From assembly GCA_049999805.1 (NCBI GenBank), contig JBNGIO010005876.1:20776-84775 (forward strand): DNA of 64,000 bases, given 5' to 3'. Shown here piece after piece: positions 9,235 to 59,708 of this stretch (within the stretch, counting starts at the first letter, position 1; every line of letters begins with the position of its first letter). The position numbers and the translations under genes are program-made. Below the pieces are notes generated by a model. It did not search any database and was not told where the DNA came from. It saw only the letters and a list, made by a program, of their open reading frames with translations. Source of the DNA: Folioceros fuciformis (taxonomy: Eukaryota).

Positions 9235-9940
9235 ACTCTAACCCTTGGATGGATATCGCTCTCTGGCTCTGGGATAGGATGTTCTAGCCTTGGATGGACT
9301 AATGCTTGGATGGATGTTGGGCTCTAGCCTTGAATGGACTAACCCTTAGATGGATGTTGGGCTCTAGCTTTGGATGGACTAACGCTTGGATGGATGTTGG
9401 GCTCTAGACTTGAATAGACTAGCCCTTGGATGAATGTGGGGCTCTAGCCTTGAATGGACTAATTCTCTGTTGGGCTCTAGACTTGAATAGACTAGCCCTT
9501 GGATGAATGTGGGGCTCTAGCCTTGAATGGACTAATTCTCGATGGATGTCGGGCTCGGCTCTAACCTTGGATGGATGTAGGACTCTAGCCTTGGATGGAC
9601 TAACCCTTGGATGGATGTCGGGCTGTAGCCCTTGGACAGATACCTTCTAGGTAATCTTGAGTTTGCCCTCTATTCCATACTGGATATTTGTCCTCTAGCC
9701 CATATATGCTCTAGCCAATCCTTGGATGTGTGCCCTCTAGCCCTTGGATGTGTGCCCTACAGCCCTTGGATGCGTGCCCTACAGCCCTTGGATGCGTGCC
9801 CTATAGCCCTTGGATGCGTGCCCTATAGCCCTTGGATGTGTGCCCTCCAGCCCTTGGATGCCCTCCAGCCCTTNNNNNNNNNNAGCCCTTGGATGTGTGC
9901 CCTCCAGCCCTTGGATGCCCTCCAGCCCTTGGATGTTCGG
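9235..9940. repeat. Minisatellite array built on a CCTTGGATG core (~40-bp units grading into ~21-bp units); contains an assembly gap at 9874-9883
   Basis: Many copies of gcccttggatg(t/c)gtgccct and ctagccttg(g/a)atggactaa. Confidence 0.9.
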
Positions 9941-21781: not shown

Positions 21782-23132
21782 GCTAAGATTTACACCAGAT
21801 TGCCTGATGAATTTAGAATAGCAGGAACAGGTGCCCTCTCTGTTCACACTTGGAGCGAGTACATGCTTGGATGTATGAGAAAGTGAAACTNNNNNNNNNN
21901 TCACACTTGGAGCGAGTACATGCTTGGATGTATGAGAAAGTGAAACTACCTCAGATGTCTTCCCATTAGATTAACTGCGTTACTCTAACAAATGTCTCCT
22001 CCTGTAGCTCATACGCGGTCTTCAGGACCTTAACTGTCTGGCAACAAAGCACAGCCATATCCCGACCCCTAACTACCTTTGCTTTTGGAAGCAAGACCTC
22101 GAAGCAGGCTAGTCTCAGATTAGCAGGAGTTTTTGCAGGTGCATGATGCCAGATGGGAGGGTTTGCATAGCTTCCCAAGATTTAAGGTACTAAATTTAAG
22201 GAAGTGGAGTCGGCATGAAGGCTAGGCGATATTGAGCTTGTGATTCATGAAGGTAGGAGGTCAACGCCATGCTAAACTGGCTTTTTGGGGCAGGCCATTG
22301 GATCTAAACCCTAAGCCCTTAAATTCCATTGGTACCACTACACCAGCTCACGTGTCCTATAGCTCAACTATTTGTCCTTACAGAGCTAGGCTAAATGTTT
22401 TAGCCGAATCAGGGGATGCAATCTACTGGATGGCTATGTCTGTAGCGCGTTATGCGGTTTTTTTCGATTCGAACATTGCGTCAGCGTGGACTATAGCCAG
22501 CAGCCTGCCACTTTTCCACGTCCCAAGCGCACGAATTCCCGTCTGCAAAATTCTGCTGAACACCTGTGGATCAAGTGAATCTCTTTGTACTAGCCAATGC
22601 CATCAAACAGCTCGAGAGTCGCTTTTTGTGGGGGTTGTAAGTGGAGCTTTTGTTACATCTAAAACTGTTTTTTGGTGGCATGTTCTATCAGACCTACTTG
22701 CACATCCTTGGTGTAGTCTATACTATCAAATTCCTCATCTTTACTATAGACTGGTGATCACAGGAATCGTTGGTTAACAACCATAAACTACAAGTGGCCT
22801 TGGGCCTAGAGCTCGGAGCTCTACTTGCTTGTACGTCCAGGAGCTCTCAGATCTATTTAGTTACATCTCCAGAAGCTCGGGCACCATCTACTATTTCAAC
22901 GTACCACTGATGAATCCTAAAGGTCCTCAAGAAAGCTGTTATGTACTCCCTGACCTCGCAAAGGACATGGCAGCTGCAACCTTCAAAGTGGATGTTAAGG
23001 AGAATGGACAGATTTCAAACGTTGAGAAAGGCCCCCTTTCCTGGTTACAGACTGTGTTTGGGATTTCCGTCCATATGTGTCCACCAGCTACCTATGTCTT
23101 TCGAAGATTCTCCCTCAACGACCTCAGCTGAC

Positions 23133-53362: not shown

Positions 53363-53731
53363 TCAAGAAGGAGAAGCTTGTTGGCTTTCCAATAGGCGAG
53401 TGATCCAGTCCGCGACCACGTCCCCATGGCAGGCCAGGGGCTTGCAGTAGCAGGCCAGCTTGAGCTCAGGGTTTCCAGGTTGCGCCAGATGCACCAGCTG
53501 CATCAGGTGCTCGAACTGCGGGTTGGTGCGGCCAGCAAGCCCCTCGCTTACCAGCTGCCCCAGCCAGCTCCTGTACTTGGCCACAACGTCCTGCCTGTCC
53601 CCGTCCACCCCGATCTTGAAAGGGTTGCCCAGCGGAGATCCCGCCAGATTGAACTTGGGGTTCCGCCTCCCGATGTAAACCACGCCTTCGCCTCTCCACC
53701 CCTCCTTGTACCCGTTCACTGCTCGCACCAT
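53363..53731 (-). CDS. Intronless DUF4326-like protein (122 aa)
   Basis: Motifs VYIGR, SPLGNPF, DR..VVAKYRSWL and LACYCKPLACHGDV match the DUF4326 pattern as I recall it. Confidence 0.85.
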   Translation of the reverse strand: MVRAVNGYKEGWRGEGVVYIGRRNPKFNLAGSPLGNPFKIGVDGDRQDVVAKYRSWLGQLVSEGLAGRTNPQFEHLMQLVHLAQPGNPELKLACYCKPLACHGDVVADWITRLLESQQASPS

Positions 53732-54220
53732 AGCCGCGGCCCGCGCACCACTGCAGCTGGTATGCGTGTGTTGAGAACCTGAGGCAGTGCACGGGAGGGT
53801 GAAAGGGCTGCGAAGTCATGGTCTGCATGTGCATCTCACACCAGCGTAGGAGCTACGGCACATCCAAGCCGACTTACCAAACTGCCCGGAGCCTTCCTGC
53901 TCTCAGTCACAGAGATCTTATCCGAGCCCAGATATTTGCAGACTGTGCCATTTGCCTCAAAAGCAGACACTTCACTGTTGAGTTTGCATTTTGCGCCGGG
54001 CAGGAGGAAGGGTCGCAGGGTCTGGAGGGCCTGGAATCCGTACTGGGCCCTGACAGACTGTAGTGCGGAGATGGAAGGCTGTTGCTGGGCCTGAATGCAG
54101 CTGCCGGTGTTGCTGGGAGCAGGATGCGGGCTAGGGTAGCCGGAGTGCGGTGACTGTGCAGCCGGGCGGCGAAGGAAATACAAGCAGAAGTTCCGCATGC
54201 CGGGGTGCGGAGGGAGAGCA

Positions 54221-56288
54221 ATGGCTCAGGCTCTGGGGCTGAAGCCGTCCGTGATGGTGCCGTCGGGGCACCCGCTGTCGTCGCTCTCCGCCACCAACTG
54301 CGCCAGGCCGCTGCAACAGCGCTGCGCGCACCTGGCGCACGGCCTCAGATTGTGCTCAGCTACGGCCTCNNNNNNNNNNNNNNNNNNNNNNNNNNNNNNN
54401 NNNNNNNNNNNNNNNNNNNNNNNNNNNNNNNNNNNNNNNNNNNNNNNNNNNNNNNNNNNNNNNNNNNNNCTGAGGGAAGTGGAACTGGAGAGTGGTGCTG
54501 ATTCCGACGGGTCAGAGGAGAAGCCTGGAGCCTGGAAGTGGGCCATCCGGAAGAAGATTTGGGACTTGCTGGAGGCCGAGAACTTGGCCCAAAGCCCGCG
54601 GCCTGTGCACCATCGGATTCCGAATTTCGTGGGTGCGAATGTGGCAGCTACCAAGGTGCTGCTCCTGTCAATGTCTGTGCTTTTGGGTTTTGGTGGATTT
54701 TCTTCCATTGTCTGGACGGTGCGGTGCTGAATCTTCTGTGCATCCTCAACATTGTGGAACTGTCCTAGGTGGCAAGTCTGCCAGAATTTGTGGCTGCCAA
54801 GACTGTGAAAGTGAATCCGGATACTCCCCAGAAATTGGTGCGACGCTTGGTCTTGGCTGGTGAGAGCCTTAAGCGTTTTGAGTGAAGAGTATCGGATTTG
54901 CCTCCGCAAATGGCCTGAAGGATCCCGGCTTGAGCATGGGTGCAGAGGGCAAGAAGATGATAACTCCACAGCCTCGGCTTCGGACAGGCTTCTTTTCGTT
55001 GTTGGATCCTGCCGTTCTGTCTTCCGAAGCGATTAGGGAGTGTGTCACCTCAGCAGCGGTAGCCAAGCACGGGAAGCCCCTCACTGTCAAGGCGGACTTG
55101 AAGGTGGATCTGCTTGTTATCGGGTCTGTGGCTGTGGATCCTGCAACTGGTGCCCGTCTCGGGAAAGGAGAGGTAGAGGATGCAGCATGCGTTTCCTGGC
55201 TTGTGATTGTTTAGTGTGCCTTCACGTCAACTCTCCATTCAGCTCCTTTGGGCAATCTGCGATAGGGTTTTGCAGAGTTGGAGTATGGTCTGCTGCGCTA
55301 CATGGGTGCAATCGATGACTCCACTCTAATCGTCACGTCAGGTAGTCTACTTACTCTTCTTCGGTTGTTGGAAGGATGCACCCTCACGAGTCTCTCTCGG
55401 TATGATCTGCTACTGATTGTGCCCCTGATGAGAGGGATGTGCGTTGTCAGTGCATGATAAGCAGCTGGTGGACAACATACCAGTGGAAAAGCTTCTTGTA
55501 CATGACGTCCCGGTGGACATCATCTGCACTCCTACCCAAGTCATCCGCACCAACACAACTATTCCGAAACCTACAGGTAACTCCATGCCATCTGGAATCA
55601 GCTGTAGAATGACTGCTGTTTCTGGCTTCTGTGAGGGACTGGAGCAAGGGAGCTGAGGACAGGAATGGCCTTCGGGGGGCACACAGGTATCTACTGGGAC
55701 AAACTGTCTCCAGAGAAGCTGAGCCAGATCAAAGTACTCAGGGACTTAAAGAGGCAGATCGAAGCTGAAACAGGGAAAAAGCTACCCACAGGGCCGAGTG
55801 AAACACTACCTCCAGTGGCCAAAAGGGTTCCTATTGGCAAGGCTCGAGAACTCCCTCTCAAAGAGAAGCTCGTGCTCTGGTATCTGGATCCCAAGGTAAC
55901 ATGGTTTGATGTGAAGCAGCACGTAGAAAAGGTGGGAGGAGTCGTAGACAGCGTGACCATGTTCGGGGCAAGGACTGGGACACCAAAGCAAGCCGCTCGG
56001 GTGACTCTGAAAGCAGGAGGGACTGCTCCGGTAGAAAAGCTGGCCGAATCTCTCCGGGCCTCGGTTCTGAAAGGCTCCCATGTCAGGGCCAGAGTTCTCC
56101 TACCCAAGGACGGTGCTTCAGAATCGGTGGCGGACATCATAGATGAACAGGAGACAACAGTGCTGTGTACAGCCTCAAACACGGCGGGCGGGCCAGCATC
56201 CCGCGACTCCGAGTCTGAGCCTTCTCCAACAGAAGTAGCTGTTATCGCTACCGCCCAACATGTACGAATGCCCCACTGCCGTCCTTGA
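54221..56288 (+). CDS. COG0212: COG0212 / MTHFSD-like 5-formyl-THF cyclo-ligase paralog with a long C-terminal extension; exon 1 contains a 100-N gap (54370-54469)
   Basis: [79 protein letters not shown]. Exons 54221-54655, 54769-54859, 54946-55172, 55266-55341, 55451-55575, 55687 onward. Confidence 0.9.
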
Positions 56289-56363
56289 CTCCCCGGCCAG
56301 ATTAGTGAAGCGGGCCCTCGCGACAGGTCGTGGTAAAGTGTTGGTTCTAACGCTCTCATGCAG

Positions 56364-56918
56364 AGTGCACAGACTCGTCGACAGGCTCTCTGTTCTCTCT
56401 GCCTTGGAGCTCTCTCTCTGGCTGCTGATTCCCGCCAAGAAGCCCAGGCCCTCTTGGACAACACCCCTGGCTGCCGAAACTGTGGTGGCTCCGGTGCCGT
56501 TCTCTGTAAGTACTGCGTCCTTCATCCTCTCTGCATGTAACCTTGAAGGTAGTGCCGTCCCTCCAACTACATCGTCTGAACCCGCGATCTCGTGCTTCTG
56601 GCCAGGCGACATGTGTGGAGGGACTGGCAAGTGGAAGGCCCTCAACAGGAAGCGAGCCAAGGACATCTACGAGTTCACCGAATGCCCTAACTGCTACGGT
56701 ATATTCCTTCCTGATTCGAATCTCTGGAACGTGCTCTTGTTGCCGGCCAATCGTAGCCAACACCGTGCACTGATTTCCTCCTCGCAGGACGCGGCAAGCT
56801 CGTCTGCCCGGTCTGCCTCGGCACGGGCGTGTTCAATAACAAGGGGCTGCTTCGCAGACCCGAGGCCAAGGAGCTCCTGGACAAAATGTACCATGGTAGG
56901 TTGCTGCCGAGCAGCTAG
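56364..56918 (+). CDS. PSA2: PSA2/EDA3-like DnaJ-type zinc-finger thylakoid protein; exons 56364-56505, 56606-56698, 56788-56918; no separate first exon visible
   Basis: TRR..AQA lumenal-type signal, then [65 protein letters not shown]. Confidence 0.9.
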
Positions 56919-58223
56919 CCGTTGCGTGTGTCCCGTCCTCCGTGCAATCACACCTTTTTTGTGGGGTTCACCCCGTCCGGTAGTAGAGACCATGGAAGCT
57001 TGTGCCTTTGCCAAAACGAGCCGTGGCCAACCCACGACGTCAGACAAGAGCACCAACAGTAACGACACGAAGTGCGTGAAGTGGGCCGCATCACGAAAAC
57101 CAACCACCTGTGTGGGCGGAGTACGGCCACCTCCAGAAACTGTGGTCTGTCACGAGAGCACACTTGCGTTGCGGATAGTGCTGCTGGAACAGAGAACTGT
57201 ACCGAAGGGGCGGGGAAGCCGCCAGGAACCTCCGCGACGCTAAGGTTAAAGGAATTTCACCTACTGTACCAGCGGGATTTGAAGGCACGGCTGTGCAACA
57301 GACACGCGGAGTGGGGGAGATCCGCGACGCAGCCGGAGCGATTCAGCTCGGGCGCCGCGAGGCTGTATTGAATGTGGTAGGCCAGCTGCTGTGGCAGTGG
57401 GCGTGTGTCTGTGCCAGAGTGTTTCGTTGGTGAACGTGGATAGAATAAGACAGTAGCAGTCGGGCTTAGAAGCCTGATGTTGACACAGTCCTGTGACGCA
57501 AGAATCCGTGTGCTACCGACCTCGACTGGGAGTGTGAACTTTCGAGGCAACTGGAGTCTTGTGGTCGGCTTGACCCATGTTTGTTGCACCCTTGTCTGAT
57601 GTCAGTCAAGGTTCTGTGATGGCTACTCCTGCTTCTTGCCCCTATTAGCCTCTGGGATTATGCCCCAGGGTCCCGAATATCAGTGCCGGCCGGCCTTCTC
57701 TTGTCGCTCGCTGCCCTGACTTTGCGTCGGGTCTGTGACAATTAGTTCGTTTGAGATTTGGCGCCCCGACAGGCGGCGGTTTCGGTTTTGCAACCACTGC
57801 TCGGGCTGGGATTGAAGTCCTATTGGCAGGAACTTGTATTTGCTTTGGGCCTGGTGCTCGATTTTGGCCTTGGGCTGTCCGCTTGCTCCGAGACTCCTTT
57901 GTGTCTCTTCTTTGCTGAGTTGCGGGTCTGCATGTTGCGATTCTCTGCCCTGCAAGTGTTGAGGGTGCTAGCTCTGGTGGAGAAGGAACGTCCGCGGCGT
58001 GTCGGAAGCTGCCAGGTGCCGGGATGAACTTTGCGTGCAGAATTTGAGATTTGGGCGGGTGGATTTGGAGGTCCCGGTGGCAGGTTGGGGAGCTGCAAGC
58101 CGTTTGGTGAAGTTGTTGAAAAGGTGGCGAACAGAGTTTTCAAGATGCATGGTGGAAGACAGCGCTGTGGGAATGCTGCAAAGGGTAGAGGAGAGCGGGA
58201 CTGTGGTGTGAGTGCCCACCAGC

Positions 58224-59708
58224 ATGTGCTTCCCCAAGCGTGCAACTCCGTCCAAGCCTGGGTGTGCTAAGGGACCGACAGAAAACACGGCGCGTAAGCA
58301 GATTATGAAAAATGAACTCAGGCACATGGGTCCAGCAAGCCGAGCGGCACCAGCTGTTCATCAGGCCAGGGCTAAACCGCCCAGATTCCAGGAGCATCGG
58401 AGTTTAAATCCGTCGAGCAGCACGTCGTCGGGTCGGCAGTCGGGCTTCTCCAGGGAGTCTGCCAGCAGCGGGTCTCTGGCGGGAGTGAGACAGCTCGTGT
58501 CGGATGGGGCTGTGGTGTACAGGCACAAGGAACTCAGCAGGGCCACAGACCATTTCAGCAGTTCCATGAACATCCCAGGCTCCAAGTCGGTGTTCCGCGC
58601 TTCTCTTATGGGGGTGGAGGTGGCAGTGACGCGGAAGAAACATGAAGGACAGGGTATGGACTTTCTGGCAGAGCTCAAGCTTCTTTGCAGTGTGCACCAT
58701 ACCAACATCGTGAAGCTCTTGGGGGGATGCTTTGTGAAAGGAGACTGTGTGTACCTGGTTCATGAACTGGCAGAAGGTGCTAATCTCAGGCACGCCCTTC
58801 GCAGTCCTCACAATCCGGGCTTCTGCCTTCTGGCATCTTTGGCATCCAGGCTGCAGGTAATCGCCGTCTGGCCTCAGGGTGATGTTTCTTTTCCATTCCT
58901 GCATGGCTTGTGGACACTTGTTGCATGACAGTGACATGCATTACCTGGTGCGAGCTGCCAGGTTGGTTTGGATGTGGCCAAGGCTCTGGAATACCTTCAC
59001 GAGTATGCCTACCCAACCTTCGTCCACAGGTTCGTACAGAGCTCCAACGTTATCATTGACAATGACCTGAGGGCCAAGATTGCAAAGTTCGGTGTCTCCA
59101 AGTTGATCGGAGACACAGTCAGTCAAACACCCACTCCAGATCCCTCCTCCAGATCAAGCGGCGAGCACTCAATATTCAGCGGTGAGATACAGCCGTCAAC
59201 TGGTGCTGGAGGATCCGGAAGGAGTAGCCCGTTGGCAATAGCGCGACCCAGAAGCGGCCGGATTATAGGGACTAAGGGTTACATGCCTCCAGAGTACTGC
59301 TCCTCGGGCATTGTGAGCGTCAAGTATGACGTTTTTTCTTTCGGGGTGATTTTGCTGGAGCTCCTATCTGGCCAGGAGCCCCTTGTCTACGTTCCGGACA
59401 AAGATCAGAACTCCGTCACCGTGAATTCCGTCACCGATGCAATTTCTTACATCATGGAAGACAGCAATGACAGCAGGACGAGGCTGAGGAAGTGGATGGA
59501 TCCTCTTCTTCGAGACCAATACTCTCTTGATCATGCGTACCAGGCTGCAGCTCTTGCCAAGTCCTGTGTGGACCCAGACCCAACAATCCGCCCCCACATG
59601 CGGGATGTGGCTGTTAAACTGTCTAAGCTCCTGACAGCTACCACAGTGTGGGAGACTAACTTGGCTAGCGCCAAGAACGCGATGAGTGGCCCAGTCGAGG
59701 CAAGATGA
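58224..59708 (+). CDS. Receptor-like cytoplasmic (pseudo)kinase related to LysM-RLK kinase domains; intron 58857-58961
   Basis: LCSVHHTNIVKLLG, LDVAKALEYLH, GTKGYMPPEY, DVFSFGVILLELLSG, RPHM; no ectodomain or TM segment. Confidence 0.88.

Follow-up and report, generated by a model that had tools for sequence, protein, structure and literature searches.

In-frame fusion of COG0212, an RRM-fold domain and PSA2 in one Folioceros fuciformis gene, a candidate precursor of stromal and lumenal proteins

Two plant proteins, COG0212 and the photosystem I (PSI) assembly factor PSA2, are encoded by one gene in a 64,000-nt stretch of the Folioceros fuciformis genome (contig JBNGIO010005876.1, positions 20,776 to 84,775 of the forward strand; the whole stretch is called the window below). 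Arabidopsis COG0212 (At1g76730) is presumably located in the plastid, and Pribat et al. 2011 is said to be the source for its co-expression with THIC. A passage of PMC4120688 describes COG0212 as a paralog of 5-formyltetrahydrofolate cyclo-ligase (5-FCL) with unknown function, associated with thiamin and co-expressed with THIC. PSA2, known as EDA3 in Arabidopsis (At2g34860) and ZNJ1 in Chlamydomonas and described also in maize, has a twin-arginine (RR) lumenal signal, an A-x-A site, four CxxCxGxG motifs and a characteristic C-terminus, and the same elements are found in the window gene. Stand-alone PSA2 precursors typically have 180-240 amino acids (96-378 among the matches listed), and in this the fused form differs from them. 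Among animal proteins, MTHFSD presumably has a 5-FCL-like domain preceding its RRM. The structure of the MTHFSD RRM is PDB 2E5J, according to the part of PMC2504292 that deals with it. For Arabidopsis PSA2, a passage of PMC11449065 gives a lumenal location, a predicted cut at A93-L94, and a mature mass of 10.1 kDa. The parent families, polyprotein precursors, and gene fusions are all known; the combination COG0212-RRM-PSA2 was not found in protein databases, and a full-text search of one literature library found no paper naming PSA2 and COG0212 together.

COG0212-RRM-PSA2 is one tripartite nuclear gene, fused in frame at the RNA level. It occupies positions 54221-56918 of the forward strand, where eight short introns with GT..AG ends interrupt the coding sequence and leave nine exons; the seven introns other than the fusion intron have 86-113 nt (Table 1). 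The spliced open reading frame (ORF) runs from ATG 54221 to TAG 56916-56918 and has 1896 nt, or 631 codons, both counts including the 100 N of an assembly gap at 54370-54469; these happen to keep the frame (149 + 100 = 249 nt), but the real sequence there may differ in length and frame. The stop-to-stop ORF that contains the last COG0212 exon extends over 55635..56288, past the residues GPSETLPP, and is closed by TGA 56286-56288. This in-frame TGA belongs to the fusion intron, as do CTAAC at 56347-56351 and an ATG at 56358-56360 that is in frame with PSA2. The donor is CAT/GTACGA (GT at 56262-56263), the acceptor is CAG/A (56363/56364), and the exons are in phase 0 on both sides. The open frame to 56288, the phase-0 donor, the CTAAC and the acceptor had been named in the original prediction, which also held that a 102-nt intron joins COG0212 in frame to PSA2 with neither intergenic space nor a separate PSA2 transit-peptide exon in between. 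Indeed, no such exon exists between 56261 and 56364, where the 102-nt intron is the sole intervening sequence, and the in-frame join is seen in RNA.

The RNA evidence comes from run X1, which is public, is recorded as 'RNA?', contains 68% of the sampled words, and is the single matching run. One X1 contig (7531 nt, no differing letters over the aligned part) removes all eight introns at GT..AG ends. At the fusion it has the joint 56261>56364, which skips 102 nt from GT to AG; the shorter side of this joint spans 142 letters, and no letter is ambiguous. The exon 1 donor is seen in the joint 54653>54767 (cut +2). Since eight canonical introns are removed from an otherwise identical sequence, the contig represents spliced RNA of the same organism. 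Its mean word depth of 93 indicates presence and not level, and the depths, being flat per contig, were not used. The fusion intron is bridged by this one contig and covered by none. The only in-frame stop of COG0212-RRM (56286) lies within the removed intron, and thus there is one open frame into PSA2: in the observed RNA, COG0212-RRM has no stop of its own before the PSA2 stop.

Several trivial origins of the joint were considered. An assembly collapse that removed an intergenic region, for which the original prediction had allowed, is ruled out, the RNA joint falling exactly on canonical GT..AG ends with no ambiguous letters; it would also be immaterial, because even a longer true intron leaves the fused mRNA whole. 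A chimeric RNA assembly is ruled out as well, given the exact GT..AG ends and no word shared at the joint. A conjoined or read-through chimera, formed as an extra isoform of two genes that each keep their own stop, terminator and promoter, is not supported, as the upstream stop 56286 exists only in the removed intron and nothing else lies between the two parts. The only poly(A)-type motifs after 56262 are two TGTAA, both in the first PSA2 intron, and they are uninformative.

For the production of PSA2 from this locus the original prediction had offered three options, namely a polyprotein with an internal signal, a switch by intron retention, and an internal start or borrowing of the COG0212 transit-peptide exon by alternative splicing. 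The fully spliced fused form is present in RNA; among the X1 contigs there is none that retains the intron and none with a join of exon 1 to 56364. With the intron retained, COG0212-RRM would stop at TGA 56286, and a second cistron would begin at ATG 56358 (MQSAQTRRQ..). Both the stop and the ATG exist, separated by 69 nt, and translation from this ATG would be in the PSA2 frame. However, the intron is bridged and never covered in X1, PSA2 made from this ATG would have a lumenal-type signal and no plastid transit peptide, and leaky scanning is implausible given ten further ATGs in the 5' cistron before position 55959 alone. Moreover, the stop 56286 would have two exon junctions downstream, so that an mRNA with the intron would be expected to undergo nonsense-mediated decay. 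We consider such a switch highly improbable. If the exon 1 donor (54655/54656) or the exon 3 donor (55172/55173) were sometimes spliced directly to 56364, a short mRNA for PSA2 with a transit peptide would arise alongside the full fusion; this seems improbable too. The joins would be in frame, both donors and the acceptor being in phase 0, but such a fit is expected by chance for one third of donors. No joint of this kind occurs in X1, where all eight joints are constitutive, although this argument is weak, as contigs miss minor isoforms.

The upstream module is assigned to the plant COG0212 paralog rather than to true 5-FCL, in agreement with the identity proposed originally. Exon 3 alone matches PF01812 with 35.7 bits against a cut-off of 27 (Pfam, E 1.1e-08), and the residues of exon 1 that follow the assembly gap match the same family with E 0.005. 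Exon 6 begins with 46 residues that share 70-80% identity with land-plant COG0212 in 56 of 56 matches (338-456 aa, many named COG0212); all of these carry PF01812, and their coverage is restricted to the first 24% of the exon. In tblastn, the COG0212 exons are matched exon by exon in 24 metagenome loci. The first 50 residues of the fusion protein contain no D/E, 4 K/R and 9 S/T, a composition that suggests a transit-peptide-like N-terminus. PF01812 and the exon-level homology (18 plain plant-type loci) are shared with plant COG0212 such as At1g76730. However, the plant proteins end just past GPSE.LPP, P0043 (354 aa) seven residues after it (..PTAERKRR) and P0032 (348 aa) five residues after it, whereas in the window gene the RRM fold, the linker and the PSA2 part follow.

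That the frame stays open after GPSETLPP had been noticed in the original prediction, but the extension was left unexplained and the domain in it was overlooked. The 149 codons between GPSETLPP and the donor (55815-56261) are predicted to encode an RRM-fold domain and a disordered linker. In an AlphaFold2 model built from a seven-row alignment, residues 14-97 have pLDDT of about 70-90, whereas residues 98-149 are disordered with pLDDT below 50. The modelled topology is beta-alpha-beta-beta-alpha-beta (strands at 18-24, 44-50, 59-65 and 91-95, helices at 30-40 and 73-82). In a Foldseek search of PDB with this model, 48 of the 50 best ranks were RRM or other RNA-binding domains, with target TM scores up to 0.78 and six matches at E <= 0.001; ranks 17 and 50 were an ACT-domain protein and PurU. 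A sequence search of PDB with the middle domain yielded 13 matches (E up to 10), none of them meaningful, as all had E >= 0.31. In the protein atlas the best scores were 0.87, below the lead level of 0.9, and the RRM-named clusters found there serve as leads only. The linker (56106..56261) is a single open frame, with two stops in each of the other two frames; by GC content at codon positions it was not distinguishable from the other coding parts.

A HMMER search of 1.84 billion representatives with the middle domain found six proteins at E <= 0.001. P0057 (E 1.5e-15, 39% identity) and P0060 (E 3.7e-05, 35%) are exon-level ORFs in which the COG0212 C-terminus is followed by the same domain. 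P0058, P0059 and P0061 are proteins of several RRM-like repeats, and the remaining match is P0062 (1368 aa, E 3.2e-04). In canonical RRMs, the RNP1 and RNP2 consensus sequences contain aromatic residues for RNA stacking. The beta3 strand of the window domain (55989-56012) reads K-Q-A-A-R-V-T-L and has no aromatic residue at the RNP1 position; the same holds for P0057, and in P0060 the strand reads R-Q-S-A-R-I-T-F, ending in Phe. The multi-RRM proteins P0058 and P0059 have an R-Q-A-V-V-E-F version of the RNP1 strand. The Pfam RRM_1 score of the window domain is 13.3 bits, under the cut-off of 20.7. Given this score and the missing aromatic RNP1 residues, RNA binding by the domain is uncertain, and the COG0212-attached RRM fold may form a distinct RRM subclass. 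The order of a 5-FCL-like domain and an RRM recalls animal MTHFSD, whose RRM has the canonical fold, as far as it is covered by PDB 2E5J and the relevant part of PMC2504292. Specific kinship with the MTHFSD RRM was not seen, 2E5J being outside the 13 PDB sequence matches and outside the 50 best Foldseek ranks. Unlike the window gene, MTHFSD has neither plastid targeting nor a PSA2 part.

The 24 loci mentioned above were obtained by searching metagenome contigs with the three aligned COG0212-RRM sequences. Six of them, L001-L006, represent the P0060 organism and contain a six-exon COG0212-RRM gene, in which the RRM of the last exon is followed by a true TGA. Beyond this TGA, about 590 nt more are present in L006, a contig that resembles RNA in being mostly spliced. 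No PSA2 was found in any of the 24 loci at E <= 0.01 (tblastn with four stand-alone PSA2 proteins), including the 6 kb downstream of the gene in L004 and L005. The P0060 gene has the same six-exon structure and the same last exon as the window gene, but it is closed by a stop codon, and PSA2 is absent over the next 6 kb. Hence, as judged from these loci, COG0212-RRM is a gene in its own right in the P0060 organism. The remaining 18 loci encode plain plant-type COG0212, and their match ends at the last residue of GPSETLPP; in L012 the protein ends ..PTAERKRR-stop. In some of these loci the intact gene is accompanied, at a distance of a few kb, by additional incomplete COG0212-like segments, in tandem in L012 (7382-7707) and inverted in L010 and L011 (9144-10021, reverse strand); they look like pseudogene pieces.

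The situation in the P0057 organism is less clear. P0057 (233 aa) is an exon-level ORF on an 18.8-kb contig, and its RRM is followed by a 77-residue tail ending ..SSESSEDV-stop, in which a segment ..SPTAVATVAS.. weakly resembles the 10-residue stretch just before the fusion donor of the window gene. The end of this ORF could be read-through of a GT donor, and the P0057 organism may share the fusion. The runs X2 and X3, made from other organisms in the same study as X1, contain almost none of the sampled words. At 80% likeness, X2 has one 62-nt piece on exon 4, with 11 of 62 letters differing and a loose end that continues into exon 5 sequence; this piece carries no information on the fusion in the X2 organism. 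X3 contigs at the same likeness gave no records on the window. The COG0212-RRM-PSA2 fusion is real and lineage-restricted.

The downstream module is identified by its similarity as PSA2, a DnaJ-type zinc-finger protein with four CxxC motifs, which again agrees with the original prediction. Its exons are 88-97% identical to land-plant PSA2. Exon 9 is 81-93% identical to at least 120 matches (the best 120 of 372), among which the names PHOTOSYSTEM I ASSEMBLY 2 and EDA3 are frequent. In tblastn, P0079, P0121 and P0123 match exon 8 over 31 residues with 93.5-96.8% identity, and P0087 matches it over 42 columns with 78.6%; the start of mature PSA2 in exon 7 is matched by the same four proteins. All four CxxCxGxG motifs are present in the translation and align with nine stand-alone PSA2 proteins. 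The Pfam match of exon 7 alone to DnaJ_CXXCXGXG (PF00684) is weak (E 0.011, below the cut-off). A homolog search with the 47-aa exon 7, aimed at longer proteins, gave 136 candidates, none of them significant, as could be expected from an exon that is mostly variable signal peptide.

An internal twin-arginine signal ending in A-Q-A had been predicted, and a candidate is indeed present. It comprises T-R-R (56373-56381), a 14-residue hydrophobic core in the region with the highest 15-residue Kyte-Doolittle value of the entire protein (1.71), and A-Q-A (56442-56450). It aligns with the region of S/T-R-R, hydrophobic and small residues in the nine stand-alone PSA2 proteins. The 92 residues that follow A-Q-A make up the predicted mature PSA2, a size matching the 10.1 kDa stated for the Arabidopsis protein in the above passage of PMC11449065.

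In all nine stand-alone proteins, which come from bryophytes, conifers, angiosperms, and transcriptomes, the RR motif is preceded by 67-150 residues of the protein's own Met-led presequence. The homology of the window gene to these proteins starts only at S/T-R-R. Since COG0212-RRM is a stand-alone gene elsewhere and PSA2 elsewhere has its own presequence, the fusion has replaced the transit-peptide region of PSA2 by the whole upstream protein, placing the RR signal about 510 residues from the N-terminus.

On the other hand, PSA2 might be made mainly from a shorter mRNA starting within exon 6, with translation from ATG 55959 (MFGAR..). In that case the C-terminal two thirds of the RRM and the linker (101 residues) would serve as the PSA2 transit peptide, and the long fused ORF would merely reflect how the COG0212-RRM mRNA ends. 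This ATG is in frame and is the sole Met codon of exon 6. The resulting precursor of 222 residues fits the lengths of stand-alone PSA2 given above, and the first 55 residues from 55959 are basic and Ser/Thr-rich (10 K/R, 4 D/E, 8 S/T). The Met is common to P0057 and missing from the unfused P0060, and the RNA contig cannot reveal starts. However, the stretch in question is a conserved folded RRM and hence unlikely to be an unstructured transit peptide, and COG0212-RRM would still be without its own stop, so that the fused protein would be produced regardless. We therefore regard overlapping units of this type as rather doubtful.

A precursor of three modules (about 630 residues, about 68 kDa) that works as a stroma/lumen polyprotein is the reading that we favour as the probable one. 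The precursor would be imported into the plastid via its N-terminal transit peptide. The internal RR signal would then engage the thylakoid twin-arginine translocation (Tat) translocase or receptor as a hairpin or loop, so that all N-terminal parts stay in the stroma, while the zinc-finger domain would be translocated into the lumen. Cleavage after A-Q-A by the thylakoidal processing peptidase would release free PSA2 of 92 residues (about 10 kDa). COG0212-RRM would stay behind on the stromal side, where the remnant of the signal might tether it or a second cut in the disordered linker might free it. The hairpin orientation of Tat signals is reportedly described by Fincher et al. 1998. According to a passage of PMC3538955, Tat signal peptides insert in a hairpin-like manner, with the N-proximal part remaining on the cis side.

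By analogy, the nearest precedent is PsbY of higher plants. Thompson et al. 1999 and Mant & Robinson 1998 are said to have described its polyprotein. In the relevant part of PMC4823308, PsbY is a thylakoid polyprotein with internal cleavable signal peptides; as in the proposed scheme, one nuclear-encoded plastid precursor gives more than one product in the thylakoid system, and the signal peptide is not at the N-terminus. The same part of PMC4823308 presents PsbY as two copies of one small membrane protein that arose by internal duplication. The window gene, in contrast, combines two unrelated proteins, one destined for the stroma and one for the lumen if the scheme is correct, and the signal between them is of the twin-arginine type.

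Another possibility is that the fusion protein is not cut and the RR/hydrophobic segment acts as a signal-anchor, so that a single membrane-spanning protein exposes COG0212 and the RRM to the stroma and its PSA2 zinc finger to the lumen. We consider this unlikely. If true, a stromal step in PSI biogenesis, perhaps one linked to RNA or ribosomes, would be physically connected with assembly in the lumen, and COG0212, an orphan enzyme, would gain a functional link with photosystem I.

Several observations weigh against the polyprotein reading, or limit it. The RNA support consists of one assembled contig from one run, whose RNA nature is deduced from splicing. This contig also reaches into the genes on either side, by 1790 nt upstream of 54470 and by 4.2 kb or more in the downstream direction; it thus merges overlapping transcripts and does not show where transcripts start and end. 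In addition, contigs drop rare isoforms. The N-terminal third of exon 1 is unverified owing to the 100-N gap. The cleavage sites were read by eye from the sequence, and we found no natural precedent to cite for a Tat signal that lies inside a protein, preceded by about 510 folded residues. Among the matches compared, no other organism showed the fusion: the DnaJ zinc finger occurs in none of the 56 COG0212 matches, and PF01812 in none of the best 120 of 372 PSA2 matches. Finally, a further stand-alone PSA2 or COG0212 gene may exist outside the window.

The last two points lead to the suggestion that the locus is a young, dispensable chimeric copy, and that stand-alone COG0212(-RRM) and PSA2 genes elsewhere in the genome do the real work. 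Indeed, the fusion is so far confined to this organism among those compared, and the search for second copies covered the 64-kb window only. Within this window, tblastn found no second copy of PSA2 or COG0212. Moreover, every module is intact, with no frameshift or stop, the PSA2 exons retain the high identity to land-plant PSA2 given above as well as the RR signal and the four CxxC motifs, and the gene is present in the RNA contig. A dispensable copy is, in our opinion, not a likely explanation.

Should the proposed synthesis and processing of the precursor prove correct, it would provide a natural twin-arginine signal acting deep within a polypeptide, behind two folded stromal domains, and with it a ready test of the loop, or hairpin, model of Tat targeting. 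In this literature search no polyprotein with both stromal and lumenal products was found, and the precursor would then be the first. In any case, the fusion brings a PSI assembly factor together with COG0212, a conserved plastid protein of unknown function, and with the RRM-fold appendage that vascular plants lack. Genes that become fused are sometimes related in function, but in a compact genome the joining may just as well have been accidental. Automatic gene callers probably split or truncate the locus.

Table 1. Exons and fusion intron of the COG0212-RRM-PSA2 gene (window positions; RNA joints are those of the X1 contig)
Feature	Position	Strand	Content	Support
Exon 1	54221..54655	+	ATG; transit-peptide-like N-terminus; start of 5-FCL-like (COG0212) domain; 100-N gap	
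Exon 2	54769..54859	+	COG0212 part	RNA joints 54653>54767, 54858>54945; homologous exon in loci L001-L005
Exon 3	54946..55172	+	5-formyltetrahydrofolate (5-FTHF) cyclo-ligase-like core	PF01812; RNA joints
Exon 4	55266..55341	+	COG0212 part	RNA joints 55170>55264, 55336>55446
Exon 5	55451..55576	+	COG0212 part	RNA joints; frame
Exon 6, first part	55687..55814	+	COG0212 C-terminal helix region, end ..GPSETLPP	
Exon 6, middle	55854..56105	+	Predicted non-canonical RRM-fold domain	
Exon 6, end	56106..56261	+	Linker of 52 codons, predicted disordered, acidic, Ser/Thr/Ala-rich, up to phase-0 donor	
Fusion intron	56262..56363	+	102 nt, GT..AG	RNA joint 56261>56364
Exon 7, first part	56364..56450	+	Candidate twin-arginine lumenal targeting signal	
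Exon 7, rest	56451..56505	+	Predicted start of mature PSA2; first CxxCxGxG motif	
Exon 8	56606..56698	+	Second and third CxxCxGxG motifs	RNA joints 56505>56606, 56697>56787
Exon 9	56788..56918	+	Fourth CxxCxGxG motif; conserved PSA2 C-terminus; stop TAG 56916-56918	

Upstream of the fusion gene and head-to-head with it, there is a DUF4326 gene (PF14216, E 1e-16) at 53363-54198 on the reverse strand. Its likely first exon (MRNF..) begins about 25 nt from the COG0212 ATG 54221. As the X1 contig reaches 1790 nt upstream of 54470, the divergent DUF4326 and fusion transcripts probably overlap at their 5' ends.

Downstream, a plant-type protein kinase gene lies on the same strand at 58212-59708, with Pkinase and PK_Tyr_Ser-Thr matches in the ORFs 58212-58928 and 58935-59708; together with the COG0212 and PSA2 identities, this neighbour points to a streptophyte genome. 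The X1 contig is unspliced from 56787 past 58200 and continues for 2812 nt more, into this kinase gene. The unspliced RNA over 56919-59708 indicates either a very long 3' untranslated region overlapping the 5' end of the next gene, or read-through transcription. Two 10-N gaps are located elsewhere in the window, at 9874-9883 and 21891-21900.

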